Shown here in pieces: positions 10,358 to 62,054 of a DNA stretch of 64,000 bases. The DNA comes from Candidatus Omnitrophota bacterium (GTDB lineage: Bacteria > Omnitrophota > Gorgyraeia > Zapsychrales > Fredricksoniimonadaceae). Numbering within the stretch: the stretch's first letter is position 1; every line of letters starts with the position of its first letter. The notes under the pieces were generated by a model. That model saw only the letters and a list, made by a program, of their open reading frames with translations. It did no database searches and was not told where the DNA came from. The translations under genes and the position numbers were made by a program. Location of the stretch: the NCBI GenBank assembly GCA_903908245.1, contig CAIVRE010000033.1, positions 18,172-82,171 of the forward strand, written 5' to 3'.

Positions 10358-13074
<2,717 letters not shown>

Positions 13075-23202: not shown

Positions 23203-23334
23203 TTGCTTCCTGCCGTAGTCCGTAAAAATTTTTTACCCGAACGGGAAAAATTTTTGTGCTTGTTTGACCGTTGGGTGTAATGAAGATTTTTCTTGTTCGT
23301 TTGTTAGTCTAAAGATATACTTTGTGAAATTTAA

Positions 23335-23662: not shown

Positions 23663-26600
23663 ATGGGTGTGTTTAAAAGGGTGTTGAGTTCGATACTGAC
23701 CGCTGCGTTGATCTTGACAGCAATTCCTGTCAGGGCAGGGGAACTGTTGCTGCCGCTTCCCGGGGCGATGGTATCCTTGAGCCCTGCCTTTGTGCCGCCG
23801 CTGCTCAAAGGCGTTAAAGTGTATCCTGACGATCCGCTCCGTCTTGATTTTATTCTTGATCAGGGCGACGGCGCAGATGCGGCCGACACGGCCCGTCTTA
23901 TCAAGTATTTTCTTGCCTCCGTTACCGTTCCCGAGAATGATCTTTGGGTCAATCTTTCTCCGTATGAAAAAGACCGCATCATTCCCGATTCCTTTGGCGT
24001 GACGGAAATGGGCCGCGATCTTTTGAACCAGGATTACATGCTTAAGCAGATCACGGCTTCCGTGATCTATCCGGAAGGAGAGACGGGCAAGGCGTTCTGG
24101 TCCAGGGTTTATGCCGAAGCGCAAAAGCGGTTTGGAACGACGGACATTCCGGTCGACACCTTTAACAAGGTTTGGATCGTCCCCCAGAAGGCCGTGGTCT
24201 ACGAGAGTAAAGATTCAGCCTATGTCGTTGAGAGCCGGCTGAAGGTCATGTTAGACGCGGATTATTTGGCGTCGTCGAACAATGCGCTGCCGGGTGATGG
24301 CAAAGATGATATTGCCAGGCAAGTCCTTCGTGAAGTTGTCATTCCCATTCTCGAGAAAGAAGTTAATGAAGGAAGGAATTTCGCCCAGCTCCGGCAGGTT
24401 TATCATTCCTTGATCCTTGCCGTCTGGTACAAGGACGCGATCAAAGAAAGCCTTTTTGGCAAAGCCTATGTTGACCGGAAGAAGACCGGCGGGGTGGATA
24501 TTGAGGACAAGGCCGCAAAGGACAAGATCTGGGCGCAGTATGTGGAGGCCTTCAAGAAGGGTGCATACAATTATATCAAGGAAGAGGTCGATCCTGCGAC
24601 CGAGCAGGCTGTTCCCCGGAAATATTTTTCCGGAGGATTGAGATTGAATGTGAGCGCTGTCAAAGAATCCGCGCCTCGATCCCGTGTGCCCGAAGGCTTG
24701 AACCATGCGCAGGTCGTTAAAGTGGAGCTTGATGCGACAGGAAAGAGTGTCCTTGCGCAACGGATACCGCTTCTTTCCGCCGGTCGCGTGACCTATGGCC
24801 AGGGGGAATACACGGTCAGGCATACGGACCGCACGCAGACATTTAAAAGCTGGATGAGCCTGGCCCGTTCGCTTCTTCATGCATATGACAGTGAATTCAC
24901 GAAACTTTTAAAGAGGGATATCGAACCGGAAAACGCCGCCGGTATCCGTCGGATCATTGAGCTTCTGCGTGACGGGCTTGGGCGGGATATTGCCAGTATC
25001 CTTGAGATGCGGACCGGAGACATTCAAAGGCGTATTGATGTGATGCGCACGGCCGTTCAGGAAAACAAGCCGGAAATCTTTATGGACAGCGCGAATGGAC
25101 TTAACCAGTTGTCATGGGCCAAAGAGCCGGAGCTTGAGGGGGTATATGCCCAGCTTCATGAGGCGCTGAGGATCGCACGGGATGAGGGGATGGTCAAATC
25201 CGCGAACAAGATCTTTGAGGCATTGAATGAGGCGAGCCGAAGGCTTAAGCTTCAGGACGACCTGACAGTTCTTTTTAACCGCTATCAGCGGGCTTATGTA
25301 ATGGAGAGGGGGAGGGGCGGCAATATTCCTGACGATAAAGCGCGCGCCCTGGCGTTCGCCCTGGCGCTTAAGGCGGGGCGGTTCTCCAGCAGTGCCGATC
25401 AGAGTCCAAGGCTGACGCTCCTTTTTTATCAACTGGCATATGTTTCTGCGCGCGAGCATCCGGATTTTTTTAAAGCGCTCAATACACGTATTCATCACCG
25501 CGGGCTTGTGGAGCAGAAGAATGTCATGCAGGAAAGTTTACCGGGGCTTTTTGATCCGATCAAGCCGGCCGGGGTTTCGGTCCCAGCCGTTGTCGCCGAG
25601 GCATGGTCGCGCCTTGACGCTGCCCGGTCTGGAGCCCGCCTGCCGCTGGCCGTGGATACGGCCGGGAAGGCTGATCGCGCGGAGGCGGCCGTTGATCCTC
25701 AAGAGATCAATGATCCGCAGGCGGTCTCTGATTATATTGATCGACTGATCGCGGATATTAACAAGCAGCCGGGAGAGAAAGTATTCCGGGTGACGGTCAT
25801 GGCCGATCCGGGGAAATATGAAGGATCTTTTTACAAACCTCTTTATGATCTTTTCTTTGCAAAGTTGCTGGTTGATTTTGACGGGGCCGGGGACTTTGTC
25901 AGCCGTGCGCGCGCGACCTTGTCCGCAGGCGGAGTTCAAGCGTTGCGGACGGAGCTGGATGATCCTTCTGGCCTTTTGTTTTCATCCTTCCTGGGCATTA
26001 AGCCAAACGGCCGAACGCAAGGCGTTCCGTTCGACCTTTACAGCATCTTGCTTTTTTCCCTGACGGTCAATCTGGAGGGTTATCTCGGGCATCTCTATGA
26101 TGAAATGATCATTACCAGGCCGGAGATCGCGATCGCAAGAGAGGGTGTTTCGTATCATACCCGCGCGGAAAGCACCATTTTCCCGCGTGATAAAAAGATC
26201 CTGCGCGGCAGGACGAGGTCGGTTGAAAGGTATCAGTCGATCTATCGCGGTTATATGAGATCATCCAGGCTGGAAGATCAGCGCAGCTCAGAGCATGCCC
26301 GCAAGATCGAGGAGGGGATCGCCCTATGGAAGAAGAAAGCACAGGAACCGGGATATGAGCATCTTAAGCGGCGCAGCACCCGTTTCATGGAAGATACGGT
26401 GGTGGTGGAGTACGATTCGGACCTGCCGCTGATCATTGCGGATACTGAACGCAATGTGGCACGGGTCCTTCAAGTGGAACGGCAGGCGCACGCGTTCGTT
26501 TTTTCGAGCGCCTTTCTTGACAGCGCTTCTCCCGAAGAGATCGCGATCTGGCTTAATTTTGGGCAGGAGTGGCTGGATATTTATGGCAATATCTCGAGTA

Positions 26601-27718
26601 AAGAAGAGATCCAGGAGATGTATGAAGTGCTGGAAGAAGAGCGGGCAAAACTGAATGTGCATTTTTTTAGTATTGAAGACAGTCATTTGATGTCAACCGG
26701 AACGTTCAAGAAGCGCATTGCGGAGCTGATGCGGGCGCATGTGCTCAAGCGATCCCAGCATTTGATGAAACTGATCGCTTTTAATGAAGAAAAAGCCGAG
26801 GACGTCCTGCGGCGCGTCGGGGAGAAGATGAACGTGGACCCGTCCCGGCAACGGGATATGGATTTCGGATATCTGGTCAGGGGCGAGTTTCTTGAGGCGC
26901 TTGGCCTTCTGAGGGACCTTCTTAATATGTATGAAGCTGTCGGGATGCATGCGCATGCCGCAAAGATCTTTTATGAGATCGTTTATACAACGGCCGGCGT
27001 CCAGTTTTATGATCCGGGCGGGATACTTCCTCATTCCCTGCAGAACGACCTTGTTTTTATGGCATTGCGCCTGGGGCTGTGGGGTGATTTTTTAAACGAG
27101 CTTGATATTCTTTTTACGGCAAAGACGGATGTTGTGTTTTATGAAGGGACCAAAAGGCCGGATCCGCTCAAAAGCATCAAAAAAGAATTCCGGGATGGAT
27201 CGCCAAGGAACGGGTATCCGAGGCCCATGTATGAGGAGAATATTGCTCCCATGAAAATGCTGACGGATTCCATTATGCTTCGAAGGAAATTGAGGACCGT
27301 GATGGCGGCCCAGTTGTCGGCGACACCCGTGGAAAAACGTGACGAGGTGAAGGGGTATGTGGAAATGGCGGACATCATGATCAAAACATTTTTGCGTACC
27401 CGGTTCCGCAATGTGAAAGCTGAGGCGTTCCCCGGGGATGACCCTGTGCCAGGATCGGTGGCGGGAAACGATGACCGCGCGGAGACGGGCGGTATCGATC
27501 TGACCCGCGGCCGGATGGATATTGAGACCGGCCGTGAGGGGCAAAACGTCGAATTCCATTTCGATCCGGCCAATGCGGCGCAACGGGAACAATTGCAGAA
27601 CGCCACGGGTTTCACACCGGTCATTATTGACATTGCGCCCATGACAACGACAGTGCCCATGTTCCTTGGAATTTCCGACGGGTTGACCGCTTTCTCCGGC
27701 GGGTCACTCTCCGGCTGA
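23663..27718 (+). CDS. Large secreted hypothetical protein (1351 aa) with no recognisable catalytic motif. The ORF beginning at 63537 is a paralog.
   Basis: Single uninterrupted ORF with RBS ACAGGGG and an N-terminal signal peptide (MGVFKRVLSSILTAALILTAIPVRA). Its N-terminal region (LIKYFLASVTVPENDLWVNLSPYEKDRIIPDSFGVTEMGRDLLNQDYMLKQ) is closely mirrored by the ORF starting at 63537. Confidence 0.6.
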   Translation: MGVFKRVLSSILTAALILTAIPVRAGELLLPLPGAMVSLSPAFVPPLLKGVKVYPDDPLRLDFILDQGDGADAADTARLIKYFLASVTVPENDLWVNLSPYEKDRIIPDSFGVTEMGRDLLNQDYMLKQITASVIYPEGETGKAFWSRVYAEAQKRFGTTDIPVDTFNKVWIVPQKAVVYESKDSAYVVESRLKVMLDADYLASSNNALPGDGKDDIARQVLREVVIPILEKEVNEGRNFAQLRQVYHSLILAVWYKDAIKESLFGKAYVDRKKTGGVDIEDKAAKDKIWAQYVEAFKKGAYNYIKEEVDPATEQAVPRKYFSGGLRLNVSAVKESAPRSRVPEGLNHAQVVKVELDATGKSVLAQRIPLLSAGRVTYGQGEYTVRHTDRTQTFKSWMSLARSLLHAYDSEFTKLLKRDIEPENAAGIRRIIELLRDGLGRDIASILEMRTGDIQRRIDVMRTAVQENKPEIFMDSANGLNQLSWAKEPELEGVYAQLHEALRIARDEGMVKSANKIFEALNEASRRLKLQDDLTVLFNRYQRAYVMERGRGGNIPDDKARALAFALALKAGRFSSSADQSPRLTLLFYQLAYVSAREHPDFFKALNTRIHHRGLVEQKNVMQESLPGLFDPIKPAGVSVPAVVAEAWSRLDAARSGARLPLAVDTAGKADRAEAAVDPQEINDPQAVSDYIDRLIADINKQPGEKVFRVTVMADPGKYEGSFYKPLYDLFFAKLLVDFDGAGDFVSRARATLSAGGVQALRTELDDPSGLLFSSFLGIKPNGRTQGVPFDLYSILLFSLTVNLEGYLGHLYDEMIITRPEIAIAREGVSYHTRAESTIFPRDKKILRGRTRSVERYQSIYRGYMRSSRLEDQRSSEHARKIEEGIALWKKKAQEPGYEHLKRRSTRFMEDTVVVEYDSDLPLIIADTERNVARVLQVERQAHAFVFSSAFLDSASPEEIAIWLNFGQEWLDIYGNISSKEEIQEMYEVLEEERAKLNVHFFSIEDSHLMSTGTFKKRIAELMRAHVLKRSQHLMKLIAFNEEKAEDVLRRVGEKMNVDPSRQRDMDFGYLVRGEFLEALGLLRDLLNMYEAVGMHAHAAKIFYEIVYTTAGVQFYDPGGILPHSLQNDLVFMALRLGLWGDFLNELDILFTAKTDVVFYEGTKRPDPLKSIKKEFRDGSPRNGYPRPMYEENIAPMKMLTDSIMLRRKLRTVMAAQLSATPVEKRDEVKGYVEMADIMIKTFLRTRFRNVKAEAFPGDDPVPGSVAGNDDRAETGGIDLTRGRMDIETGREGQNVEFHFDPANAAQREQLQNATGFTPVIIDIAPMTTTVPMFLGISDGLTAFSGGSLSG

Positions 27719-33964: not shown

Positions 33965-34117
33965 ATAGACGATTTTTCTGCTGTGCTCGTCAGGGGGTTT
34001 GTAATATTGAACCAATACAATATTACAGGGGATCGTTGTCTATCTGGCTCGTGGGCCAATAGCTTTTCCCCACCTGTTAAGCAGGTTCGATACGCGGACT
34101 TCCAACGGCATAAGCGG

Positions 34118-34152
34118 AATTTGTTTAAACCCGTGTAGTTAATTCTACACGG
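34118..34152 (+). terminator. Rho-independent terminator about 200 nt downstream of pheT.
   Basis: AAACCCGTGTAG-ttaatt-CTACACGGGCTTTTT. Confidence 0.75.
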
Positions 34153-40358: not shown

Positions 40359-40413
40359 TTCTTGCAAAAACTGGCTTGTTTGTGTATAAATAGTGCCTTC
40401 CAAGTTGATATAT

Positions 40414-40484
40414 TGCCCTGTGGTGTAACGGTAGCACAATAGACTCTGGATCTGTTTGTCTAGGTTCGAATCCTAGCGGGGCAG
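40414..40484 (+). tRNA. tRNA-Gln (anticodon CUG).
   Basis: Acceptor TGCCCTG/CGGGGCA (U1-A72 as in bacterial tRNA-Gln, one G-U pair); anticodon stem ATAGA/TCTGT with loop CTCTGGA; T-arm CTAGG-TTCGAAT-CCTAG. A TTGCAA...TATAAAT promoter lies upstream. Confidence 0.8.
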
Positions 40485-40495
40485 GTAATTTGATG

Positions 40496-40525
40496 AAAAG
40501 CCCGACCTTATGGTCGGGCTTTTTC
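40496..40525 (+). terminator. Rho-independent terminator after tRNA-Gln.
   Basis: AAAAGCCCGACC-ttat-GGTCGGGCTTTTTCTTT. Confidence 0.8.
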
Positions 40526-40532
40526 TTTGGTA

Positions 40533-40660
40533 CCTGCCCCGCTAGGATTCGAAGGAGCCCCGCCGGGTCCGACGAATAGGAGGACCCTATAGGCGGGGCG
40601 GATGGCCGACCCGAAAGGAGCCCCGAAGGGCGACTGGAGGGCGCCGAACGCCTAGCGGGG
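40533..40660 (+). mobile_element. tRNA-Gln 3'-end-linked miniature element. The left end is a perfect 21-nt inverted copy of the tRNA 3' end, the middle is the conserved structured core, and the right end is a 10-nt direct copy of the tRNA 3' end followed by a T-run.
   Basis: CCTGCCCCGCTAGGATTCGAA (40533-40553) is the exact reverse complement of tRNA 40465-40485. The core (40554-40640) aligns with the tRNA-Val-linked core. CCTAGCGGGG at 40651-40660 equals tRNA 40472-40481, and the T-run is at 40664-40671. Confidence 0.6.
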
Positions 40661-40781
40661 GATGTTTTTTTTGTGGTAGATGGCTATTGTAGAAAATCAT
40701 GGTAGAATATACTAGTATTTCGACATTCTCTATAAAAATGATACGTAGGTTTTTGAAACGTGTTTGGGGCAGGGAGGCTGT

Positions 40782-46795: not shown

Positions 46796-47521
46796 ATGAA
46801 ATGGTTTTTGACATCGCTTGTTCAGTTGCTGTTCGCGCTATTCATGTATCTGATGGGGTCGGTATTTTTCGGCGCGGCGCTGGTCCCCGGGCTGGCACTG
46901 ATATTTAAAGTGTGGGGCGCTACGGCCGCGATGATGCCGCTGTTGCGGTTATTTTGTGTGGGCACGGCCGTGGCGCTGGGGTTCTTTATTTTCGGCCTGA
47001 CGCTTATTTTGCTGGTCGGGCTCTTTCGTACGGCGCTTCAGTTGAAATTGAAAGAAGGCACACACCATTTGTTTTCCGGTGAAGCCATGAAATGGGCTTT
47101 TCTCAGTTCGCTGTTCCTGATGATCCATTACACGTTCATTGATTTTATCCTGCTGACGCCTTTCGCGAATATCCTGTTCCGCCTGCTGGGCGCGAATCTG
47201 GGGAAGAATGTGCAGTTCAATTCTAAATATGTTTTTGACGCAACTTTGCTTGAGATCGGCGATAACACGGTTGTCGGCGGCGGGGCGATCATCAATTGCC
47301 ATATTGTCGAGAGGGCCTCGTTAAAACTGAAGAAAGTAAAGATCGGCAGTAATGTCCTGCTCGGGTCTCATTGTACGGTCATGCCCGGTTGTGTGATCGG
47401 GGACCGGGCCATCATTGCGGCCGGGACCATTGTTCCCAAGAACACGGTCGTTCCTCCGCGGACGGTCTATGCGGGGCGGGAACACGAGATCAAGAAGGAT
47501 GTCGAGAAAGGAGTTCTATGA
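46796..47521 (+). CDS. Membrane-anchored left-handed beta-helix (hexapeptide-repeat acyltransferase-like) protein.
   Basis: N-terminal TM helices, then ...IGDNTVVGGGAIINCHIV...IGSNVLLGSHCTVMPGCVIGDRAIIAAGTIV hexapeptide repeats. RBS AAAGGA precedes the ATG at 46796. Confidence 0.5.
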   Translation: MKWFLTSLVQLLFALFMYLMGSVFFGAALVPGLALIFKVWGATAAMMPLLRLFCVGTAVALGFFIFGLTLILLVGLFRTALQLKLKEGTHHLFSGEAMKWAFLSSLFLMIHYTFIDFILLTPFANILFRLLGANLGKNVQFNSKYVFDATLLEIGDNTVVGGGAIINCHIVERASLKLKKVKIGSNVLLGSHCTVMPGCVIGDRAIIAAGTIVPKNTVVPPRTVYAGREHEIKKDVEKGVL

Positions 47522-48828
47522 ATATTAAAGCGGTGCAATGGCTTTATCAGGAGCTGCCGGGCCTGGTCAGCAAGGGAGTCCTCGCGCAATCGGCGGCGGA
47601 CAAGCTGCATGAGCATTACGGGGAGATCCGGGGTGCGGACAGGAAATGGTTCATTATTATTTTGTGCAGTGTTTTGGGAGCGATCCTGATCGGGCTTGGC
47701 ATTATCCTGTTGTTTGCGCACAACTGGGAAGAGCTGTCCCGTCCTGCGCGCGCGGTGCTTTCCCTGTTGCCATTGATCGTCGGGCAGGCGCTGGCGGTGT
47801 GGGTCATTGTTAAAAGGCCGGAGTCCCAGGCATTGAAAGAGGGGGTTGCGACATTTTTAAGCCTGATGGTCGGCGCTTCGCTGGCGCTGATCGCCCAGAC
47901 TTATAACATCCCCAATGATACGCCGGCCTTTATATTGACGTGGATGCTGCTCATTGTTCCTTTGGTGTATTTCATGGAGGCAACGATCCCCGCCGTGATC
48001 TATGTTATCGGTATTGCATCGTGGGCCGGGTATTTCTGGTATGAGCCGCTGAAAGGTTTCTGTTTCTGGCCGCTTTTGGCGGTTGTTATCCCTCATTTTA
48101 TCTGGTCGCTGAAGCAGGAGAAATATACCATTCGGGTGGCGATCCTGGCTTTGGTCATGGCGGTGGGTGTTTGTGTCGGGGCCGGATTTACTTTAGGCAG
48201 GACCTGGGGAGGGTCCTGGATCGTGATCCATTCGAGCCTGATCACGCTGTTTTATCTTCTGGGCGCGTGGGAGTTTAAAGATTGTTCGACGAATTGGCAA
48301 AGGCCTTTTCAGGTTTTGGGGGGTCTGGGTATTTTTATCCTGATGTTTTTCCTGACATTCCGGTTCCCGTGGGAATCGATCACGGGAAGATATTCGTATG
48401 GCGTGAATGAAATATCAACATGGTCTGCGGTCCCGGACCATCTGCTGACATTTTTGCTGGTGGGTGGCGCGTTGTTAATGTTTTTTCAATACGCCAAGAG
48501 GGAGGACTGGATGAGGACGTGCTTTGGCGCATTGCCTTTGCTCGCCCTGATCGGGTACGCCTTTTGCGGAACATCCGCGGTTTTCCCCATGTTGTTGTTC
48601 AACGGATACCTGCTTTTCGTCAGTGTTTTTCGCCTGATGACGGGAATACGGACCAATAATCTGGGTGTGGTCAATACAGGCATGCTTATGTTGTCGTTTT
48701 TGGTTTTGGCAAGATTTTTCGACAGTGATATCAATTTTATAGTTAAAGGACTGGTTTTTATTGTTATTGGCATCGGTTTTCTGGTGACCAATGTTGTGAT
48801 CTTGCGTCGTAAAGGAGGTACGGCATGA
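47518..48828 (+). CDS. Polytopic membrane protein (DUF2157-like).
   Basis: About 436 aa with many predicted TM helices. The start overlaps the upstream stop (ATGA). Family assignment is by recollection of the DUF2157/GDYXXLXY pairing. Confidence 0.4.
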   Translation: MNIKAVQWLYQELPGLVSKGVLAQSAADKLHEHYGEIRGADRKWFIIILCSVLGAILIGLGIILLFAHNWEELSRPARAVLSLLPLIVGQALAVWVIVKRPESQALKEGVATFLSLMVGASLALIAQTYNIPNDTPAFILTWMLLIVPLVYFMEATIPAVIYVIGIASWAGYFWYEPLKGFCFWPLLAVVIPHFIWSLKQEKYTIRVAILALVMAVGVCVGAGFTLGRTWGGSWIVIHSSLITLFYLLGAWEFKDCSTNWQRPFQVLGGLGIFILMFFLTFRFPWESITGRYSYGVNEISTWSAVPDHLLTFLLVGGALLMFFQYAKREDWMRTCFGALPLLALIGYAFCGTSAVFPMLLFNGYLLFVSVFRLMTGIRTNNLGVVNTGMLMLSFLVLARFFDSDINFIVKGLVFIVIGIGFLVTNVVILRRKGGTA

Positions 48829-49379
48829 AAAAATACTGGACCCTTGGTCTTTTGGCTGGTTTGATGCTGGTGCAGGTTGCGCTTCCGGTATCGATGATCG
48901 CCAAAAGAGAAACAACGCTGAAGTATGGGATGGCTTTCCGGTTTAAAACAGCGCCGGTCGATCCTTATGATGCTTTTCGCGGCCGTTATGTGGCTTTAAG
49001 GGTGGAAGTCAACAAGGTGAACAAGCCCGAGGGCCTGGAGCTGAAGTACGGGCAGAAGGTTTACGCACAGCTGTCTGTTGATGAGAACGGGTTTGCAATG
49101 ATCGCGCAGGTTGCGGTGCAGAAGCCGGGCAGGGGTGCCTATTTGGAGGCCAGGGCCGGGTATTCGCAGAGAGATGAGGTTCAGCTGGATTTGCCGATCG
49201 ACCGTTATTATATGGAAGAGAAGTCGGCTCCCCGTGCGGAGAAGGTTTACCGGGAGCACAGTGTGCGCGGCAAGCAGGATGCGTATGTGGTCGTCAGGGT
49301 CATGGATGGTTTTGCGGTCATCGAAGGGCTTTATATTGACGGCCGAAAAATAGAAGATCTGTTAAGGGCGAAGTCATGA
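48825..49379 (+). CDS. GDYXXLXY-domain-like secreted protein.
   Basis: 184 aa with a signal peptide and a C-terminal ...MDGFAVIEGLYIDG... resembling the GDYxxLxY motif. It is translationally coupled to the upstream membrane protein. Confidence 0.4.
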   Translation: MKKYWTLGLLAGLMLVQVALPVSMIAKRETTLKYGMAFRFKTAPVDPYDAFRGRYVALRVEVNKVNKPEGLELKYGQKVYAQLSVDENGFAMIAQVAVQKPGRGAYLEARAGYSQRDEVQLDLPIDRYYMEEKSAPRAEKVYREHSVRGKQDAYVVVRVMDGFAVIEGLYIDGRKIEDLLRAKS

Positions 49380-50365
49380 ATATCGGGTTTTTAAAATATT
49401 TCATCAGGCTTTTACTGGCGGCAGGCGTGAGTGTCTTCTTCGTCGTTGTGACAAGCTTCGGATGGAATTTTTTTTTGCGGCCGCGTCAGGCCATGGCGGA
49501 TGCCGGTTCAACGGCGCAGGGCCTTAAGGAGACAGTTCAATATTTAAGCGGAGAGGTCGGGGTAAGGAACAGGGCGCATTTTGATGCTTTGGAAAAAGCG
49601 GCTCAATATATCGAGCGATCGTTCCGGGAAGCGGGTTTGCCGGCAGAATCCTGGGATTACGAGGTTCAGGGGCAAAGATTCAGTAATATTGTGGCCAAAT
49701 ACAGGACTAATGATTCGCAGGACTATATTCTTGTCGGCGCTCATTATGATTCCTGTTTTAATCCGGGGGCGGATGACAATGCGTCGGGTGTAGCGGGGGT
49801 ATTGTCGCTGGCAAGGTCGTTGAAGAGGGAGCGTCTGGGGTCAAATGTTCTTTTTGTGGCGTTCACCAATGAAGAACCGCCATTCTTTCAGACGTCCGAT
49901 ATGGGAAGCCGGGTTTTTGTTCTGGCGGCGAAGGAAAGGAAGATCACGGTCAGGAGCGCTGTCATCCTGGAAATGATCGGGTTTTATTCTGACCGGTTGT
50001 TCTCTCAGAAGTATCTGCCGCTGATGGGGCCTTTTTATTCGAACCGGGGTGATTTTATTGCGGTTGTCGGCGATTTTAAGTCAAGAGGCCTGGTGGATGT
50101 TGTTGCCAGGGCGTTGCAAAAGCGCAATATGACCGGGACGGCGGCTATTGTGGCTCCAGGAGGAATGCCGGGGATCAGTTTTTCAGACCATGCTTCATTC
50201 TGGGCGGCAGGAATTCCTGCGGTCATGGTCACGGATACGGCTTATTTGCGAAATCCTTACTATCATCGGCAGACGGATACGGCGGATAAACTTGATTTCC
50301 TCAGGATGGCCGATGTTGTTGAAGGCCTTAAAGGGGCGATCGTCCGTTTAAGCGGGAAGCCTTAA
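49376..50365 (+). CDS. M28-family peptidase (aminopeptidase-like).
   Basis: ...ILVGAHYDSCFN.PGADDNASGVAGVLSLARSL... Zn-ligand motifs of the M28 family. Confidence 0.75.
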   Translation: MNIGFLKYFIRLLLAAGVSVFFVVVTSFGWNFFLRPRQAMADAGSTAQGLKETVQYLSGEVGVRNRAHFDALEKAAQYIERSFREAGLPAESWDYEVQGQRFSNIVAKYRTNDSQDYILVGAHYDSCFNPGADDNASGVAGVLSLARSLKRERLGSNVLFVAFTNEEPPFFQTSDMGSRVFVLAAKERKITVRSAVILEMIGFYSDRLFSQKYLPLMGPFYSNRGDFIAVVGDFKSRGLVDVVARALQKRNMTGTAAIVAPGGMPGISFSDHASFWAAGIPAVMVTDTAYLRNPYYHRQTDTADKLDFLRMADVVEGLKGAIVRLSGKP

Positions 50366-50375
50366 TCAAAGCGAG

Positions 50376-52658
50376 GTGTTTATGTGGACAGCGTGGATCT
50401 GGATCATATCGATCATTGCCACCATGTATATCGCGGACCAGAAAAAGATCGGGATGGCGGGGTTCGTTTGCCTGTCGGTCTTTACAGGGCCGTTGGCGGT
50501 GATCATCGCGTTGCTTGTTCCGGCGAGGAACGGGGATCCGGGGGTGTGCGGTATCAATGGCCTTGAGGGGGCGAAACAGCAATTGCATGAGGTCCGGAAT
50601 TCCTTGCGTTCTCTTGAGGCCAAAGCGAACAGGATCGAAGAGTTGATCGTAAAGCTGTCTTCGTGCGTTGACATCCCTGCGGTTGACGGGAAGGACCTTG
50701 TGCCGCCGGCGGTGGATATGCCGCTGTCAGAGCCTGGGAGCATTCAGCCGCCTGTCGGTCCGGTCAAGCGGCGGGACATGGAGCTGGATTTCGGACGCAA
50801 CTGGCTGAGCAAGATCGGGATCGCTGTCCTGGCATTGGGGGTCGCGTTCCTTATCAGCTATTCGTTCAAATATTTCGGGCCGTTCCTGAAGATCGCGTTT
50901 GGTTATGTGGTCGGCGGCGCGCTTTTTGTCACCGGGCTCAGGCTGGAGGGGAAGGAACGGCTCAGGAATTTCGGCCGGGCTCTTCTGGGCGGCGCGTGGG
51001 CCATTATTTATTTTACGACGTATGCGATGTATCATTTCGAGGCCTCACGGATCGTCACAAGCCAGGGGGCGGATGTATGCCTGTTGGCCCTGGTGGTGGC
51101 GGGGATGATGGCGCATGTCTGGAAATACCAGTCGGAACGGATGATGTCGGTGGTGCTTTTTGTGGCGTATTTAACGTCAACTATCGGACAGATCTCCATG
51201 TTCACCCTTGTGAGTTTATTGTTCCTGGCCGTTCTGGTATTGTTCCTGGTCTATCGGTTCCAATGGGTCAAGACGCTTTCGATCGGGATCATTTTGACTT
51301 ATGGGATCCACGTGGTCTGGGTTGTCCCCAATCTTCTTTCTTCGGCAAGGGGAGGCATGCCTTTTGGGCTGGCGGCATCCGATTATTACGTGTTCATGAA
51401 TTTTATTTTCCTCTCGTGTTACTGGGCCGTTTTTTTCGCCGGGGTCCATGTTGTGAAAGCTGTCAAGGACCCGGCCCTTGAACGGTCGCTGGCGGTGACG
51501 AATTTTGCCAATATTGCGGCCTACAGCATTTTGGCGTATCCTTTGATCCTGAAATTGTTTGATGTCCAGCGTTCGGTGGTTGTTTTTGTCGCCGGGCTGC
51601 TTTACCTGGCGTGTGCTGGCTGGATGAAGAAATGCGAACGGCCAAAAATGTTCGTGAGTGATATTGTTGCCGCCGTCTTTGCCATGACCTTTGCGGTCGC
51701 GCTGAAGTTCCTGCCGGCCACGACATTGCTTGTATGGATGATCGAGGTCCCGTTCCTTCTGTTTATCGGCGTGAATTTCAAGGAAAAGATCTTCCGTTAT
51801 TGCAGTTATGCCCTGGCGGGGATCGTTGCGTTGAGGCTTGTGTTCCTGGGATCCCGGTTTATGCCGGAGGTGTATTTCCTGGGGGTCGCCTGGGCCTGGT
51901 ACGGGTTCATGTGTTTTTGGGCCAGCATATCGATGGCGGTATGTTTTTATTTGACCAGGACAATGAAGGCGGATCCGCAAACCAATGAGTGGGACGTTGC
52001 GTTCGATCATTTGTTTTCGTTCGCCGCCGCGTTTTACTTTTCATTCTGGGTCTGGTCGTGGGTGAGCCAGCCCTGGACCGCTTTTTCGGTATTGATGCAG
52101 GGTATTGTGCTGACGGGGATCGGAGTTATTCTGGGGTTGAGGCGGTTTCGGGTGTATGCTTATCTGGCGATGCTGGCCGGCGCGGTGATCTTCCTTCTGG
52201 AGGCAGTTATGCCGGCGAGCGATATGTTGAAATGGCTGATCGTCAGCGGCAATGTGCTGACGATGTTCGGGTTTTACGGCGCGGTTAAACGCATAAAACA
52301 GAAGAGGCCGGCGGAATTGTTCTTTGAAGGGGAAGCCGGGCTGGCGCTTGTGGCCGGGCTTATTGTTCTGGTGGCGGCTGTTTACCAGTATGTTCCGTCG
52401 CAATGGGATTCGCTGTGCCTTGGGTTTGCCAGCGTTGCCGTGATATTGACAGGATTTTTTGACGGGAACAAGACGGAGCGGATGGGGGGAATGGCCTTGC
52501 TGGCGCTGACCCTTGGGCAGGTGGTCCTTGTTGACCTGTCGGGCCTGGATATTGTTTTCAAGATCATTACGCTCATCGTCCTGGGCGTTCTGTTTTTAGG
52601 GGTTTCTTATATTTATAACCGGTTTAGCGAGGAGCGTCATGACGATCCTGGGGCTTAA
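50376..52658 (+). CDS. Large polytopic membrane protein (DUF2339-like), with an N-terminal coiled-coil.
   Basis: 760 aa. A short N-terminal TM pair is followed by a coiled-coil (about 65-110) and then more than 20 predicted TM helices. Confidence 0.4.
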   Translation: MFMWTAWIWIISIIATMYIADQKKIGMAGFVCLSVFTGPLAVIIALLVPARNGDPGVCGINGLEGAKQQLHEVRNSLRSLEAKANRIEELIVKLSSCVDIPAVDGKDLVPPAVDMPLSEPGSIQPPVGPVKRRDMELDFGRNWLSKIGIAVLALGVAFLISYSFKYFGPFLKIAFGYVVGGALFVTGLRLEGKERLRNFGRALLGGAWAIIYFTTYAMYHFEASRIVTSQGADVCLLALVVAGMMAHVWKYQSERMMSVVLFVAYLTSTIGQISMFTLVSLLFLAVLVLFLVYRFQWVKTLSIGIILTYGIHVVWVVPNLLSSARGGMPFGLAASDYYVFMNFIFLSCYWAVFFAGVHVVKAVKDPALERSLAVTNFANIAAYSILAYPLILKLFDVQRSVVVFVAGLLYLACAGWMKKCERPKMFVSDIVAAVFAMTFAVALKFLPATTLLVWMIEVPFLLFIGVNFKEKIFRYCSYALAGIVALRLVFLGSRFMPEVYFLGVAWAWYGFMCFWASISMAVCFYLTRTMKADPQTNEWDVAFDHLFSFAAAFYFSFWVWSWVSQPWTAFSVLMQGIVLTGIGVILGLRRFRVYAYLAMLAGAVIFLLEAVMPASDMLKWLIVSGNVLTMFGFYGAVKRIKQKRPAELFFEGEAGLALVAGLIVLVAAVYQYVPSQWDSLCLGFASVAVILTGFFDGNKTERMGGMALLALTLGQVVLVDLSGLDIVFKIITLIVLGVLFLGVSYIYNRFSEERHDDPGA

Positions 52659-52875
52659 GAATGGCGAAGCGTTCATTGTCAGGCGGGTAACGATCTCAAG
52701 AGAGATCGGCAAGCGGCTGGCGGATATGGGATTTGTCCGCGGGGCAAAAGGGCGCATTGTCCGAAGCGCAATGCTGGGGGACCCTATCCAGGTCAAGATA
52801 TGCGAGTATGATGTTTCGATCCGCCGGTCCGAAGCGGATGGCATTGAGGTTGAGATGGTAGAGGAGAAAAAATGA
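52639..52875 (+). CDS. feoA: Ferrous iron transport protein A.
   Basis: 78 aa SH3-like FeoA, ...GEAFIVRRV....IGKRLADMG...G..I.V... Confidence 0.7.
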   Translation: MTILGLKNGEAFIVRRVTISREIGKRLADMGFVRGAKGRIVRSAMLGDPIQVKICEYDVSIRRSEADGIEVEMVEEKK

Positions 52876-54914
52876 ACAGGGTGATCACGATCGCGTTGGC
52901 CGGGAATCCCAATACCGGCAAGACCACGATCTTTAATTCCATGACCGGCAGCCACCAGAAGGTCGGGAATTACGCCGGGGTTACGGTGGAGAAAAGGGAA
53001 GGCCGGCGGAAATACAAGGGGTATGATTTTCATATCCATGACCTTCCCGGTGTTTACAGCCTGACCGCCTATTCGATGGATGAAGTGGTGGCCAGGGATT
53101 TCATTATTAATGAAAAGCCGGACGTGGTGATCGATGTTCTTGATTCAACCAATATTGAACGGAATTTATACCTTTGCCTTCAGTTCCAGGAGCTGAATGT
53201 CCCGATCGTTGCGGCGTTGAACTTGAATGATGAAGCCGTCAGCCGCGGCATTCAGATCGACGAGAAAAGGCTGTCCGAGATCCTGCGGATGCCGGTGATC
53301 AAAACGATCGGTAAGAACGGGGCCGGTGTTGAGGCTCTCCTGGATAAAGCTGTCGAAGTTTTTGAGCGGAAAGAAAAGCCGGATTATGAGGTCAGTTACG
53401 GGCATGAGCTGGAGGGGGATATTCAGGTCGTGATCGCGTCCCTGGAAAAGGATGGAGCCTTCTGCGCACGTTATCCGGTGCGCTGGTGTGCGGTCAAGTT
53501 GATCGAAAAAGACGCACGCGCGGAAGAGCTCCTTGAGTCGCATGCTTTTGCCGATGGCGTTAAGGCGGCCCTGAAAGAACGGGTGCGGCGTATTGAGGAG
53601 CATTTTGGGCGTGACGCATCGACCGTGGTTTCCGAGCAGCGTTACGGATATATTCATGGGGCCACGGCAGAGGCGGTGACACGGAGGCCGGTTGACAAGC
53701 AAACGGTCACTGAAAAGATCGACCGGGTCCTTATGGACCGGGTCCTGGGGTTCCCTCTTTTTCTTTTGATCCTCTGGCTGGTCTTTCAGACAACGTTTAC
53801 GCTGGGCGCTTATCCGATGGGCTGGATCGAAATGTTTTTTGGCGGATTAAGTTCCGTGGCGACGGCGTTTATTCCGGAGGGTATCCTGCGTTCGCTGGTG
53901 GTCGACGGGGTTATTGCCGGCGTGGGGGGCGTGTCGTCCTTTATCCCTCTTATTGTCCTGTTGTTCATGTTCATTTCCATTCTTGAGGATTCCGGCTATA
54001 TGTCACGCGCGGCGTTCATTATGGACAAGTTCCTGCATATTTTTGGATTGCACGGCCAGTCATTCCTGCCGATGATCGTGGGAGTCGGCTGTTCTGTCCC
54101 GGCCGTGATGGCGGCGAGGACCCTTAAGAACGCGCGCGACCGGATCATTACCGTTATGGTGACGCCATTTATGAGCTGTGGCGCCAAGCTGCCGGTGTAT
54201 GTGTTATTGGCGGGGGCGTTCTTTCCCAGGTATGCGGGTACTGTCGTTCTGTCCATGTATGTCGTGGGCACTTTACTGGCGCTTTTTTCATCACTGCTTT
54301 TTCGGAAGACTGTTTTGCGCGGAGAATCAACGCCGTTCGTGATGGAGTTGCCGCCTTATCGTTTGCCGACGGTCAAGGGTATCCTGTGGCATGTTCGCGA
54401 GAAAACGTTCGGCTATCTGAAAAAAGCCGGGCTGGTCCTTCTTCCGGCATCCATGCTGATCTGGGCGGTGACATCTTTTCCGAAGCCTGCATTGGACGTG
54501 CCGAAAGATGTGCAGATGGCTCAAAGTTACGCCGGGAAGATCGGCAAAGAAATGGCTCCGGTCCTTGCTCCGATCGGATTTGACTGGAAGATCGGCATTG
54601 CGGCCATTACCGGTTTTGCGGCCAAGGAGATGGTGGTGTCAACGATGGGCGTGCTTTATCGGGTAGAAGCCGGGCCTGATCGGAAATCCGACAGCTTGCG
54701 TGAAGCCTTGCGGCGGGACCCTGCGTTTAGTCCGCTGGTGGCTTATGTCCTTATGTTATTTATGTTGATCGTTGTTCCGTGCTTTGCCTCGCTGTCTGTT
54801 ATTTACGCGGAGATCGGCTGGCGCTGGCTTCTGTTCGCCGTCACTTACTGGACAGCGTTGGCATGGTTATTATGTTTCATTGTTTTTCAAACAGGGCGCC
54901 TACTGGGGTTCTAG
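52872..54914 (+). CDS. feoB: Ferrous iron transport protein B.
   Basis: 680 aa with an N-terminal G-domain (ALAGNPNTGKTTIFN) and C-terminal gate/permease TM regions. Confidence 0.9.
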   Translation: MNRVITIALAGNPNTGKTTIFNSMTGSHQKVGNYAGVTVEKREGRRKYKGYDFHIHDLPGVYSLTAYSMDEVVARDFIINEKPDVVIDVLDSTNIERNLYLCLQFQELNVPIVAALNLNDEAVSRGIQIDEKRLSEILRMPVIKTIGKNGAGVEALLDKAVEVFERKEKPDYEVSYGHELEGDIQVVIASLEKDGAFCARYPVRWCAVKLIEKDARAEELLESHAFADGVKAALKERVRRIEEHFGRDASTVVSEQRYGYIHGATAEAVTRRPVDKQTVTEKIDRVLMDRVLGFPLFLLILWLVFQTTFTLGAYPMGWIEMFFGGLSSVATAFIPEGILRSLVVDGVIAGVGGVSSFIPLIVLLFMFISILEDSGYMSRAAFIMDKFLHIFGLHGQSFLPMIVGVGCSVPAVMAARTLKNARDRIITVMVTPFMSCGAKLPVYVLLAGAFFPRYAGTVVLSMYVVGTLLALFSSLLFRKTVLRGESTPFVMELPPYRLPTVKGILWHVREKTFGYLKKAGLVLLPASMLIWAVTSFPKPALDVPKDVQMAQSYAGKIGKEMAPVLAPIGFDWKIGIAAITGFAAKEMVVSTMGVLYRVEAGPDRKSDSLREALRRDPAFSPLVAYVLMLFMLIVVPCFASLSVIYAEIGWRWLLFAVTYWTALAWLLCFIVFQTGRLLGF

Positions 54915-54916
54915 CG

Positions 54917-55078
54917 ATGGCATGGGCTGTTATTGAAAAGATCATTGTTGCGGTCCTGCTGATGGCGTCGGCATCCTATTTGGGATGGCGGGCGTACAGG
55001 TCCGTGTTCAAGAAGAACTCCGATGGTTGTATTTGTGACGGGTGCCCCTCCTCTGCTTCCTGCAGCAAGAAGAAGTAA
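54917..55078 (+). CDS. FeoB-associated Cys-rich small membrane protein.
   Basis: Hand-translated 53 aa: MAWAVIEKIIVAVLLMASASYLGWRAYRSVFKKNSDGCICDGCPSSASCSKKK, one TM helix plus a C-terminal CxCxxC...C cluster. It starts 3 nt after the feoB stop. Confidence 0.45.
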   Translation: MAWAVIEKIIVAVLLMASASYLGWRAYRSVFKKNSDGCICDGCPSSASCSKKK

Positions 55079-55166
55079 TGCCTTTGGCAGATTTTAATCA
55101 ATTGACAGGGAAATCTTTCAGAGTAAGATTGTTATGCACCATAGTGCATAACTTCAGGGAGGCCTT

Positions 55167-55505
55167 GTGAGACCGAAGAAGACCAGATGGGTTAAGTGTT
55201 TGCCGGGCGAACGGTGTTTTCGTCCCAAGTGCAAGAAACCGGGGGAGTTGGACGGTGTTGTATTGACCATGGATGAGTTTGAAGCGATCCGTCTGGCTGA
55301 TCTTGAGGAGCTTACGCATGCGCAGGCGGCTGAATTGATGAAAGTCTCCCGTTCAACATTTACAAGGATACTCGCCAGGGCACATATGAAGGTGGCGGAT
55401 GGTTTGGTTAATATTAAGGCCATTAAGATCGAAGGCGGGTGTTGCAAGGTTTCAGGAGGGGCTAGAAATGAGCAAGTCTTCAACAAAAGAATTATCGTTC
55501 CTTGA
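55167..55505 (+). CDS. DUF134/UPF0251-like predicted DNA-binding protein; possible regulator of the downstream ars genes.
   Basis: 112 aa, ...[40 protein letters not shown]... (sigma-70 region-4-like HTH). Its 3' end overlaps the ACR3 start by about 38 nt. Confidence 0.4.
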
Positions 55506-56529
55506 TCGTTACCTGACGCTGTGGATACTTCTGGCCATGGGGATCGGCGTGGGCGTTGGCTTCTTCACACCGGGGATCGCGGGATTTTGGGATCAGTTTC
55601 AGTCAGGATCGACCAATATCCCTATTGCCATTGGACTTATTCTGATGATGTATCCGCCGCTGGCCAAGGTGAAGTATGAAGAGCTGGGGGATGTGTTCAA
55701 GGATTATAAGATGCTGATTCTTTCGCTTGTGCAGAATTGGGTGATCGGGCCGATCTTGATGTTCATTCTGGCGATCGTATGCTTGCGTGGCTATCCGGAA
55801 TATATGGTTGGATTGATCCTGATCGGGCTTGCGCGGTGTATTGCAATGGTCATTGTGTGGAATGATCTGGCTGACGGAGATACAGAGTATTGTGCGGGGC
55901 TGGTGGCATTTAATGCTGTTTTTCAGGTTTTGTTTTTTTCAGTGTATGCGTGGGTCTTTATTACGATCCTGCCTGGCTGGTTCGGCCTTAAGGGCGCTGT
56001 TGTGAATATTACGATCCTCCAGATCGCGAAGAGTGTTTTTATTTATCTGGGGATCCCTTTTCTGGCAGGAATGATCTCAAGGGTTGTTTTGCTCAGGTTA
56101 AAAGGCAGGGCATGGTATGAGCAGGTGTTCATTCCGTGCATTAGTCCGATGACTTTGATCGCGCTCCTTTTTACGATCTTCGTGATGTTCTCAATCAAGG
56201 GAGAGTATATCGTGAAGATCCCGATGGATGTGCTGCGTATTGCGTGGCCATTGCTGATCTATTTTGTGGTGATGTTCTTCTTTTCATTCTGGATGAGCCG
56301 GAAAGCCGGGGCGGATCACGGTAAGTCCGTGACCTTGTCTTTTACTGCTGCCAGCAATAACTTTGAGTTGGCTATCGCCGTGGCTATTGCGGTATTTGGT
56401 ATAAATTCAGGAGTGGCTTTTGCTGCGGTCATTGGGCCTCTGATCGAAGTTCCGGTGATGTTGCTCCTGGTTAACGTGGCAAGGGCCTTTCAAAAGAAGG
56501 CGGAGTTTGTCCAATCGTGTTGTTCGTAA
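55468..56529 (+). CDS. arsB: ACR3-family arsenite efflux transporter.
   Basis: [33 protein letters not shown]... 10-TM ACR3 fold. RBS AGGAGGGG precedes the ATG at 55468. Confidence 0.8.
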
Positions 56530-56540
56530 AGAGGTGACCT

Positions 56541-56963
56541 ATGGCAAAGGAAAAGGTTCTGTTCGTTTGTATCCATAATTCGGCCAGAAGTCAGATGGCC
56601 GAGGAGTTGTTGCGTAAGTTGGGCGGGGACAAGTTTGATGTCGAGAGCGCCGGCATTGAACCGGGGAAGCTGAATCCGGTCGTCATTGAAGTACTAAAGG
56701 AGATCGGCATCGATATTACCGGCAAGAAGACCCAGTCCGTCATGGATCTTCTCAAGCAAGGCAGGCTTTACAGTTATGTGATCACGGTTTGCGACGAAAC
56801 CAGCGCCGAGCGTTGCCCGGTATTTCCCGGCTCTGCCAAGAGGCTGCACTGGGGATTCATTGATCCGTCAAAGTTCGATGGGGCTCCGGAAGAGAAACTG
56901 GAAAGGACAAGGGTTGTTCGTGACCAGATCAGGCAAAAGATCGTTGACTGGCTTAAGTCATGA
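56541..56963 (+). CDS. arsC: Arsenate reductase, LMW-PTPase family (thioredoxin-coupled ArsC).
   Basis: 140 aa with the CX5R P-loop VLFVCIHNSARSQMAE and downstream Cys residues (CDE...C). Confidence 0.8.
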   Translation: MAKEKVLFVCIHNSARSQMAEELLRKLGGDKFDVESAGIEPGKLNPVVIEVLKEIGIDITGKKTQSVMDLLKQGRLYSYVITVCDETSAERCPVFPGSAKRLHWGFIDPSKFDGAPEEKLERTRVVRDQIRQKIVDWLKS

Positions 56964-57062
56964 TCGGGGGGCAATTCGTGCGGGCGTATGTTAAGATTGC
57001 CGAGGCGTTAATATAAGGAAAAATGTTGAAGGTTAATTGTCCGAGATTGAAGGAGAAATTCA

Positions 57063-57410
57063 ATGTCAGTTGAGAAAGCTAAGGCGCATTATATAGGGAA
57101 ACCGGGGTATAATAAACTCAATTGTGCCCAGACGATCGTGCACGCGTTTAAAGACGAATTTGCATTGTCTCCAAGCGTAGTGGAGCAGTGCGCCACCTGT
57201 AGCGGTGGTCGTGCGCCGGATGGAGAATGCGGCGCGTTGTATGCTGCAAGAATTCTTCTTGAAAAGCGTGACCCTGTGCAGATCCGTCATTGCGAGAGCG
57301 TGTTGTTGTCTGCTGCCGGGTCGACGAAGTGCCGCGAGATCCGGGCCGCAAAGAAATTGTCATGCGTTGGGTGTGTGGAAACGATCGCGCAGTGCATTGA
57401 AAAGGCTTAA
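57063..57410 (+). CDS. Small Cys-rich protein (possibly C_GCAxxG_C_C-family-like).
   Basis: 115 aa with Cys at conserved spacing (NCAQTIV...CATCSGG...ECGALYAARIL...CVGCVETIAQC). Confidence 0.35.
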   Translation: MSVEKAKAHYIGKPGYNKLNCAQTIVHAFKDEFALSPSVVEQCATCSGGRAPDGECGALYAARILLEKRDPVQIRHCESVLLSAAGSTKCREIRAAKKLSCVGCVETIAQCIEKA

Positions 57411-57554
57411 GGATGTCGCTTGAGGAGGCAGTGGTCGATGCGGGCGCGTCTAGGTCATTTCTGTTTTTGTTCTTTACCGGAACGCTGTTTTTGCTATATA
57501 CTTCTACATGTAGTCGGTAAAATTTCTCGGTGAAAAATTTTAAAGGGGAGAGAT

Positions 57555-62049: not shown

Positions 62050-62054
62050 GCTCA

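Follow-up and report, generated by a model that had tools for sequence, protein, structure and literature searches.

A folded, gene-free insert behind tRNA-Gln in a Candidatus Omnitrophota genome: probably a miniature integrative element

The window analysed here is the whole of a 64,000-nucleotide stretch from a Candidatus Omnitrophota bacterium (GenBank assembly GCA_903908245.1, contig CAIVRE010000033.1, positions 18,172 to 82,171 of the forward strand) and consists of origin-proximal core genome. An insert of roughly 190 bases was identified 3' of the tRNA-Gln(ctg) gene, which lies beside gltX. From the tRNA onwards it comprises a spacer with a terminator, an inverted copy of the tRNA 3' end (the inverted arm), a conserved core and a direct repeat of the tRNA 3' end. 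The 3' part of the tRNA gene, from the T-loop onwards, forms the left copy of this repeat (X_L, attL side); the copy that closes the insert is the right one (X_R, attR side). The element is probably a miniature integrative element. The coordinates are collected in Table 1, in which the scores of the core refer to a covariance model, R1, built from seven copies.

The inverted arm is identical to the reverse complement of positions 40465–40486 (TTCGAATCCTAGCGGGGCAGGT) over 22 nt, and shuffled sequences gave no such match. The copied stretch spans the T-loop, the 3' strand of the T-stem, the 3' strand of the acceptor stem, the discriminator and one or two trailer bases. The 10-mer CCTAGCGGGG occurs three times in the window (at 40472, at 40537 on the minus strand and at 40651), with 0.15 occurrences expected; the direct copy occupies 40651–40660. 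By eye and by alignment, the right repeat extends to CGAA, CG in place of T, and CCTAGCGGGG, followed by a gap of 10 nt relative to the tRNA flank and then by a shared GATG. Compared with X_L, X_R therefore has a 1 nt change or indel in its T-loop part and is missing 10 nt (CAGGTAATTT). The outline of the spacer hairpin (AAAAGCC...GGCTTTT) was also found in the spacers of the Val-linked and L002 copies described below; a simple terminator scan did not list the hairpin. The G+C content of the core is 73% (70–73% among the copies), compared with 52% for the window.

Table 1. Coordinates of the Gln-linked element, of the other copies of its core and of further features of the window (positions are those of the window; for copies outside it the setting is given instead).
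Feature	Position or setting	Strand	Basis or remark
tRNA-Gln(ctg)	40413–40485	+	ARAGORN; Rfam RF00005, 61 bits
X_L, left repeat copy CGAATCCTAGCGGGGCAGGTAATTTGATG	40467–40495	+	T-loop to 10 nt beyond the tRNA end; flank alignment and exact 10-mer repeat
Intrinsic-terminator-like hairpin, AAAA GCCCGACC TTAT GGTCGGGC TTTTT	40496–40528	+	read from the sequence; present in every fold
Inverted arm, 5' strand of helix P1	40532–40553	+	perfect reverse complement of 40465–40486, 0 mismatches
Conserved core, ~92 nt	40554–40645	+	model R1, 104.8 bits, E = 6e-20
P3 tip CCGAAGG, GNA-triloop 'mini-hairpin DNA' motif	40623–40629	+	alignment; motif properties from PMC13037366
X_R, right repeat copy CGAACGCCTAGCGGGG then GATG; 3' strand of P1, attR side	40645–40664	+	repeat count and flank alignment
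T8 run directly 3' of the closing helix	40665–40672	+	read from the sequence
Gln-linked copy	after tRNA-Gln(ctg)		repeat 10 nt exact, about 29 nt gapped
tRNA-Val(gac)	23335–23412		upstream of the Val-linked copy; terminator hairpin between
Val-linked copy, after tRNA-Val(gac)	23456–23581	+	inverted arm 23456–23476, core 23477–23563 (106.3 bits with R1), direct repeat 23563–23581 (19/19)
Copy L007	after tRNA-Ser(tga)		repeat 20/20
Copy L008	after tRNA-Val(tac)		copy ends at contig end
Copy L039/L040 (= L001)	end of 1.47-kb stretch at tRNA-Ser(cga)		repeat 23/23
Copy L004	after tRNA 3' fragment		repeat of that fragment
Copy L002/L005	after tRNA-like 3' fragment		right arm decayed
Copy L006	120 nt after tRNA-Gln(ttg)		Ser(cga)-type right arm; cognate tRNA absent nearby
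tRNA-Glu(ttc)	7357–7431		followed by an insert of similar layout (7432–7625)
tRNA-Glu insert, inverted T-arm copy	7454–7471		preceded by a spacer
tRNA-Glu insert, ~95-nt core	7472–7566		A+T-rich; one 11-bp hairpin
tRNA-Glu insert, direct repeat of tRNA end	7568–7585		18/18, similar to 7590; terminator hairpin after
dnaA	14320–15663	−	cumulative-skew minimum between it and the yidC–parAB side
1351-residue open reading frame	23663–27718		no Pfam match; starts about 80 nt 3' of the Val-linked element
6S RNA gene	33972–34124		Rfam RF00013, 64 bits; between pheT and MgsA-like gene

A sister copy of the element lies behind tRNA-Val(gac). A 26-nt segment of the core, CTATAGGCGGGGCGGATGGCCGACCC, is found exactly twice in the window, at 23510 and 40587, where no occurrence would be expected by chance. 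The direct repeat of the Val-linked copy is exact (23392–23410 = 23563–23581), and its inverted arm is imperfect. The two copies differ by three paired substitutions in the inner stem of helix P2 (GGGTCC/GGACCC in Gln, GGACGC/GCGTCC in Val) and in the length of the P3 tip, and they belong to different sub-lineages with a short and a long P3 tip, respectively. Most of this anatomy had been proposed in a sequence-only reading of the stretch, and its description of the Gln-linked element as an independent second copy of the Val-linked one was borne out, as was its statement that the right end repeats tRNA-Gln 3' sequence. The perfect inverted copy is equally real, with a length of 22 nt and not the 21 nt first given. 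The same reading had derived the arms of each copy from the local tRNA, which in other genomes holds likewise at tRNA-Ser(tga), tRNA-Ser(cga) and tRNA-Val(tac), and had taken the internal ~90 nt for the conserved part, a view that is upheld; the compensatory changes it listed (three paired changes in one helix, a change of stem length in another) are real and stand on seven copies.

The eight distinct copies of the core comprise the two in the window and six at further Candidatus Omnitrophota loci. A scan of a genome collection returned the core in two Candidatus Omnitrophota assemblies together with one chance match (L003, Lawsonibacter, inside a gene), which was rejected, and a metagenome scan returned five further loci with the core. 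The arms match a tRNA, or a fragment of one, wherever their partner could be identified, the element is co-oriented with its tRNA in all cases, and five of the eight copies are trimmed to nearly one minimal unit. The islet at L039/L040 is larger and reads tRNA-Ser(cga), dinD (encoding a Bro-N protein), a 48-codon open reading frame, inverted arm, core and tRNA-end repeat, bordered on its 3' side by what appears to be the native tRNA terminator. Homologues of dinD were found in many phyla and led to no additional copies of the core. The neighbours of the L004 copy are a small serine recombinase, a PrimPol–D5 helicase, an integrase fragment and a YhaV toxin, and the L002 copy adjoins a tyrosine-integrase fragment. 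The core insert looks like the smallest form in a family of tRNA-targeting mobile islets of Omnitrophota. The tRNA-like 3' fragment at L002:480–640 (= L005) consists of a 6-bp hairpin with the loop CUUCAGA (UCA at the anticodon position) and a T arm with TTCGACT, followed by CCA, and lies just 3' of the C-terminal tyrosine-integrase fragment (144–536); a reading of it as tRNA-Sec was dropped, as neither ARAGORN nor Rfam supports a tRNA there.

The consensus of the seven copies is a three-way junction of helices P1, P2 and P3. P1 is formed by the inverted arm paired with the right repeat copy. The outer stem of P2 (40557–40599 in the Gln-linked copy) is GCCCCGC/GCGGGGC; the helix also has a TATA bulge and an inner stem of 6 bp, and its 11-nt loop, GACGAATAGGA, is invariant. 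P3 (40604–40645) has the pattern GGCC-GA-CCC...GGG-C-GCC with an internal loop and a variable tip, and the junctions J1/2 and J2/3 are GGA and GGAT. Both window elements fold far better than shuffled sequences (z = −4.5). Over the seven copies paired cells amount to 97.6%, and five pairs are changed on both sides, compared with 1.2 in column shuffles, none of 500 of which reached five; the covariation signal collapses when the partners are slid by 1–3 columns. For five copies the two search patterns had prescribed the loop of P2 and its 3' outer strand, and for two copies a portion of P3; the 5' strands and the inner stem were unconstrained, and it is there that the covariation sits. The strand of the folded module is the + strand: in each of the seven copies its stability exceeds that of the − strand by 5–13 kcal/mol, and four G.U/G.T positions are compatible with the + strand only. 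The arm-to-arm duplex of the Gln-linked copy was calculated at −26.6 kcal/mol (−13.6 kcal/mol for shuffles). Four copies (Gln, Val, L004 and L007) have a P1 far stronger than that obtained with a shuffled arm; in L039 it is weaker, and L002 and L006, both of which lie in degraded surroundings, have none. Decay of the outer part of P1 differs from copy to copy, which suggests that P1 was complete at insertion and was not kept up afterwards.

The direct repeats were compared at six loci. They start at T-loop positions 55–57, are identical through the tRNA end and are then merely similar for 5–25 nt. The L039 repeat is identical at 23 of 23 positions and then falls to about two-thirds identity, the right copy at Val has CCAT again after a gap of 6 nt, and the right copy at Gln equals the left one apart from the 10 nt deletion already described. 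A target-site duplication should be uniform when it is formed and decay evenly, whereas an element-borne, diverged tRNA 3' flank gives exactly the pattern observed; since the repeats are perfect within the tRNA and abruptly diverged beyond it, att recombination fits and target-site duplication was rejected. Both had been offered as mechanisms in the sequence-only reading, of which the former stands and the latter does not. Its further claim that the ends are generated anew at each insertion was not established, as a lineage-borne tRNA segment with an inverted copy kept for pairing explains the arms equally well. The element probably extends leftwards, so that the current tRNA 3' end and the spacer belong to it. 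The ssrA islands of Dehalococcoides likewise insert midway along the T-loop, are flanked by a 20-bp repeat with a conserved motif just upstream of it and carry serine recombinases next to attL on the reverse strand (PMC3146451).

An Omnitrophota assembly encodes a protein with 100% identity to the GltX beside tRNA-Gln, and homologues of this GltX form a graded series within the phylum. At L014 (GltX 89% identical) an identical tRNA-Gln is present without the core and without the repeat, which supplies the empty tRNA-Gln site that had been sought in relatives. At L028 and L030, whose flavoprotein is 84% and 76% identical, tRNA-Val is identical or nearly so and again has neither core nor repeat. 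Among 21 tRNA genes compared, a downstream repeat of the tRNA 3' end was seen only where an insert of this kind is present, and a search with R1 over about 290 kb of related loci recovered the known copies alone. From the empty sites at identical tRNAs, the element is judged to be gained or lost on the species scale. The 1351-residue open reading frame 3' of the Val-linked copy is not found at that position in L028 or L030, where synteny breaks directly after tRNA-Val.

No recombinase, transposase or Rep gene was found among the window open reading frames that were scanned against Pfam (among them, of those with at least 110 residues, all eight from 5 to 10268 and all 13 from 46949 to 63077) or placed by synteny, and for this reason the window copies are considered non-autonomous. 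In relatives, and in another strain with an identical GltX (ERZ1426827), prophages with large serine recombinases occupy tRNA-Gln beside gltX, and the recombinase genes sit behind the tRNA in just the attL-side position known from Dehalococcoides. These genes (L016:4428–6203, L018:1612–3306 and L019:11802–13469) are accompanied by helix–turn–helix and Bro-N or phage genes, while the sister contigs L015 and L017, with the same GltX, have no recombinase; comparison of L017 with L018 puts the junction at the extreme 3' end of the tRNA. The sole contig of the window species with a junction, L012, diverges earlier, between ...CCTAG and ATCCC, which would cut off the acceptor strand. No core was found within 10 kb of the large serine recombinase at the prophage loci examined.

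Against Rfam 15 the core gave nothing at the gathering score (three window loci and three other loci were searched, with tRNAs and 6S RNA the only matches), and at E values up to 10 the only families overlapping it were MicX, with 22.8 bits against a gathering score of 75, and cow-rumen-2, with 13.2 bits against 66. The core is thus without an Rfam assignment at gathering and permissive thresholds; the sequence-only reading had named such an assignment as a refutation. A blastn search of the element against plasmid and phage collections gave no match, and three scans of IMG/VR gave nothing or only chance matches in coding DNA. A conserved small open reading frame was rejected, since indels of 1, 5, 8 and 20 nt between the copies break the frame. 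A retroviral-type primer-binding site was rejected as well: the arm complements the gene and 1–2 trailer bases (...GGGGCAGGT) rather than ...GCAGCCA and lacks the complement of CCA. Nor do the elements have the form of a miniature inverted-repeat transposable element (MITE), with terminal inverted repeats and a target-site duplication, as the arms vary with each tRNA. The core therefore matches nothing in the catalogues searched; the kind of element, integrative at tRNA sites, is already known. What is unusual is a gene-free element of about 190 bp with a conserved folded module and an inverted att arm at its centre.

The features of the module bear in different ways on whether it works as RNA or as single-stranded DNA. 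That it acts as folded DNA is possible though doubtful; our lean in that direction is due to the loop motifs, the lack of a promoter and a geometry like that of the CTX phage. The P3 tips are GCGAAGC in Val, L007 and L006, GCGAAAGC in L039, CCGAAGG in Gln and CCGCAGG in L002; the tip of L004, CTGAAAG, has a GAA loop closed by T-A and falls outside the mini-hairpin DNA motifs of the other six copies. Counting this variant, the mini-hairpin position is occupied on the + strand only in all seven copies. Such motifs melt at about 76°C as DNA and 39°C as RNA and are known at the primase start of the complementary-strand origin of phage G4 and in RSF1010 ssiA (PMC13037366). Read from the sequence, the stretch that separates the tRNA terminator from the arm in the window copies could not hold a promoter; a promoter and terminator scan returned nothing and missed even the evident hairpin, so that it is uninformative. 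The sequence-only reading had asked whether the left arm can pair with the tRNA 3' half in a read-through precursor, and the in silico answer is that it can: in read-through RNA the arm is predicted to pair with the tRNA 3' half at −148 kcal/mol, against −123 kcal/mol with the right repeat, in Gln (−128 against −117 kcal/mol in Val). By these calculations co-transcription would wreck the tRNA fold. The GC skew changes sign with a cumulative minimum near 16 kb, and from this and from dnaA the window is predicted to span the replication origin at that point; the folding (+) strand is then the lagging-strand template in both window copies. At about 190 bp, a circle of duplex DNA would be awkwardly small.

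Beside the question of a promoter, the motif GATATACT / AATATACT was noted at 23314–23321 and 40706–40713. It stands 10–15 nt upstream of tRNA-Val, also in L028 and L030, and upstream of a response-regulator gene, and was missed by a scan for the sigma-70 consensus; it may be the −10 element of this lineage.

The functional RNA that the compensatory changes had been taken to indicate was accordingly not established: the + strand is clear, and the P3 tip motif is DNA-like, a promoter is lacking and the arm would disrupt the tRNA. A small RNA gene lying across the att site of the element, with the circular order inverted arm, core, tRNA segment and terminator, is rather unlikely. Its 3' strand would be kept after integration, since the chromosomal tRNA end is identical, and its product would serve the element or the host, as a regulator, an antitoxin or a protein sponge, and not recombination. 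The compensatory pairs together with the + strand bias, a G+C content well above that of the window, the invariant 11-nt loop and junctions and the presence of five GGA/AGGAGC motifs, all of them unpaired, are what such a gene would show, and a terminator hairpin follows X_L directly in Gln, Val and L002, with T-runs after X_R; the same indels that exclude a conserved open reading frame are also in its favour. It has to contend, however, with the lack of a promoter-like site between the tRNA terminator and the arm of the window copies, with a 22-nt antisense arm that would disrupt the tRNA in a co-transcript and with P3 tips whose GAA and GCA triloops closed by C-G are unstable types of RNA loop and classic DNA mini-hairpins. 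A similar arm geometry is, moreover, found around the unrelated and poorly folded core at tRNA-Glu.

That tRNA-Glu(ttc) insert folds no better than shuffled sequences (z = −0.9) and has no Rfam match, and its interpretation as a decayed tRNA copy was rejected, as it has no tRNA likeness beyond the repeat. Inserts of this layout are thus present at three of the five window tRNAs. Very long hairpins stand behind tRNA-Gln, tRNA-Cys and tRNA-Leu in relatives without the core (L014, about 7615–7702; L028, about 10600–10716 and 10815–10905); their outer stems start in the last 4–6 tRNA bases and include the trailer, for example GGGCAGCTTTTC ... GAAAAGCTGCCC. Since these hairpins begin inside the tRNA ends, inverted tRNA-end copies also occur without the core.

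To return to the integrative element, its free form would be a circle of inverted arm, ~90-nt core, tRNA 3' segment (the att homology) and short spacer, in which the tRNA segment would run from the T-loop to a few bases beyond the tRNA end and the spacer would hold the terminator in some lineages. A site-specific recombinase supplied in trans would cross this tRNA segment with that of the chromosome. After integration the tRNA would end in element-derived sequence (X_L plus spacer), and the inverted arm and core would come to lie against the displaced chromosomal 3' end (X_R). Cargo can lie between spacer and arm, the place of dinD in L039; none is present in the window copies. The module would act in cis on the + strand, where the arm and the tRNA segment would pair as P1 and rebuild a duplex att site, with the core held in the loop of P1 and possibly serving as a single-strand initiation signal; the active form that we favour would be single-stranded DNA, folded into an att site like that of the CTX phage or attC. 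By borrowing the recombinase and the replication or transfer function of larger elements, such units could be inserted behind many tRNAs, alone or with a one-gene cargo. Element and mechanism together, that is, a non-autonomous tRNA-specific miniature integrative element with a folded module across its att site, are proposed tentatively, as a claim that we doubt slightly more than we believe. It is unlikely that these are the counterpart of MITEs in site-specific recombination, elements of 130–190 nt that would move as a folded single strand with the core as a single-strand initiation or origin function.

Several observations weigh against the proposal. Closely similar cores are found at at least five different tRNAs, so that a lineage with a tRNA segment of its own must also have replaced its inverted arm at each change of tRNA, for which a route would be needed; possible candidates for the match of arm and tRNA are lineage-borne segments with selection on P1, template-switch correction of quasi-palindromes and copying at insertion. 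The L006 copy has a Ser(cga)-type arm and yet lies after tRNA-Gln(ttg). The signatures of Xer/dif or integron R-box sites are absent from the arms, no copy lies alongside an intact recombinase that could be tied to the core, and neither an excised form nor a circular junction was seen. Within-species presence/absence polymorphism was not seen either, the contigs from other samples breaking inside tRNA clusters. The copies number only eight, and the conservation in the parts of P2 and P3 fixed by the search patterns is partly a matter of ascertainment. Finally, the G.U tolerance, high G+C content and invariant loops would suit an RNA gene as well, and so would the T-runs after X_R and, in the circular permutation, a terminator that comes straight after the tRNA segment.

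It is quite improbable that the inserts are inert scars, left when larger prophages or islands at tRNAs were deleted nearly wholly, in which the core would be the attR-proximal arm of attP and would be conserved by recency. Such an origin would agree with the use of tRNA-Gln as a prophage hot spot in relatives, with the position of the core at the attR end of the cargo-bearing islet and with the various decay of the arms (X_R of Gln has lost 10 nt, the L039 arm has apparently lost 7 nt, and L002 and L006 have no P1). Independent deletions would not, however, leave five of eight copies at nearly the same minimal unit, and the prophage loci examined, with large serine recombinases, lack the core within 10 kb. 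The short-tip and long-tip sub-lineages, furthermore, keep every helix through compensatory change, which argues for selection on structure and not for recency.

Very improbable, too, is a host-kept, non-mobile companion of the tRNA, the closing helix of which would mimic a minihelix for tRNA-processing enzymes or the antisense arm of which would regulate the pre-tRNA. P1 is indeed the tRNA T-stem and acceptor 3' strand paired with its perfect complement, the orientation always follows that of the tRNA, and the arm includes the 1–2 bases past the tRNA 3' end, so that it matches the precursor. Against this, the insert is absent at identical tRNAs of close relatives, a cargo gene separates it from the tRNA in L039, the L006 copy lies beside a non-cognate tRNA, outer P1 decays freely, and a generic minihelix need not match the neighbouring tRNA. 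The least credible of these explanations is a guide RNA, with the core as scaffold and the tRNA-matching stretch and its complement as guide, that would serve an RNA-guided recombinase or nuclease from another locus. In its favour, some 20 nt identical to the target come directly after a structured scaffold, and the arms vary with the tRNA while the scaffold is constant. Against it, Pfam scans of the window open reading frames and of the neighbours of the copies found no TnpB, IscB, DEDD or other transposase, both arms cover one target segment and pair together without adjacent half-sites, the decay of homology in the direct repeats that flank the element is an att signature, and no Rfam scaffold family matches.

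Among known systems, the integrative element shares with tRNA-gene islands and their integrase-less derivatives, the cis-mobilizable elements (CIMEs), its insertion at the tRNA 3' end, its boundaries (the tRNA on one side and, on the other, a direct repeat that begins in the T-loop), homology that fades beyond the tRNA, absence in relatives and the lack of a recombinase of its own. Those islands measure kilobases, whereas the Omnitrophota elements measure about 130–190 bp, and a covarying three-way-junction module with an inverted copy of the att segment against attR was not found described for them in the literature searched. The ssrA islands of Dehalococcoides resemble the elements in the 20-bp direct repeat of the 3' end with a conserved motif directly upstream, in a serine recombinase module by attL on the reverse strand, as in the tRNA-Gln prophages of the relatives, and in tandem arrays, as in L004 (PMC3146451). 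They differ in that they carry recombinases and in that their motif is of 15 bp and unstructured (PMC3146451), as compared with a 90-nt fold and an inverted arm in the Omnitrophota elements, the window copies of which are gene-free.

Folded recombination sites offer a further parallel. As in CTX attP(+) and integron attC, inverted copies of the target pair on one strand and rebuild a duplex site, only one strand folds, and after integration both arms are gathered at the end of the element that adjoins the distal half of the target. In the folded attP of the CTX phage about 90 nt separate two inverted target copies, which share one end of the integrated element, and this arm geometry was found in the Omnitrophota elements by folding as RNA and as DNA, by the arm duplexes and by the strand bias. 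Cassette-like units with or without an open reading frame before the folded site are a further likeness. The CTX and attC systems use a 28-bp dif-like site and GTTRRRY R boxes, respectively, and neither occurs in the Omnitrophota elements: the arms (...GATTCGAA / CGAATC...) correspond to neither the R-box (RYYYAAC...GTTRRRY) nor the dif consensus, and there is no IntI or Xer gene nearby. The stretch between the arms is unconserved in those systems and conserved in sequence here, and single-strand recombination is in the present case a proposal.

With the origin of phage G4 and ssiA of RSF1010 the module has in common a strand-specific fold of several hairpins over about 90–140 nt; GCGAAAGC is shared by G4 and L039, and CCGAAGG by ssiA and the Gln copy (PMC13037366). 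In five of seven copies a CTG follows the hairpin at a distance of 2 nt on its 3' side and was likened to that of single-strand initiation signals; the likeness is one of motif and architecture only, with no sequence homology. The omega RNA of TnpB and the bridge RNA of IS110 also join a structured scaffold to a segment that matches DNA flanking the element, and in TnpB omega RNA the guide is the flank of the element. In contrast to both, the Omnitrophota elements have no associated nuclease or recombinase gene, their arms are mutually complementary, and att-type repeats flank them.

If the proposed reading is true, integration at tRNA sites can be reduced to a gene-free minimum that contains a folded cis-acting module and nothing else. 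This would define the cis requirements of such elements, would bring to light a new structured nucleic-acid motif in a phylum of which hardly any members are in culture and could explain short repeats of tRNA ends that are usually dismissed by annotators as scars. Should the fold work as single-stranded DNA, the folded-strand principle of the CTX phage and of integrons would be extended to tRNA genes and tied to a priming signal; should it work as RNA, the copies would represent a new and easily modelled class of RNA carried by mobile islets.

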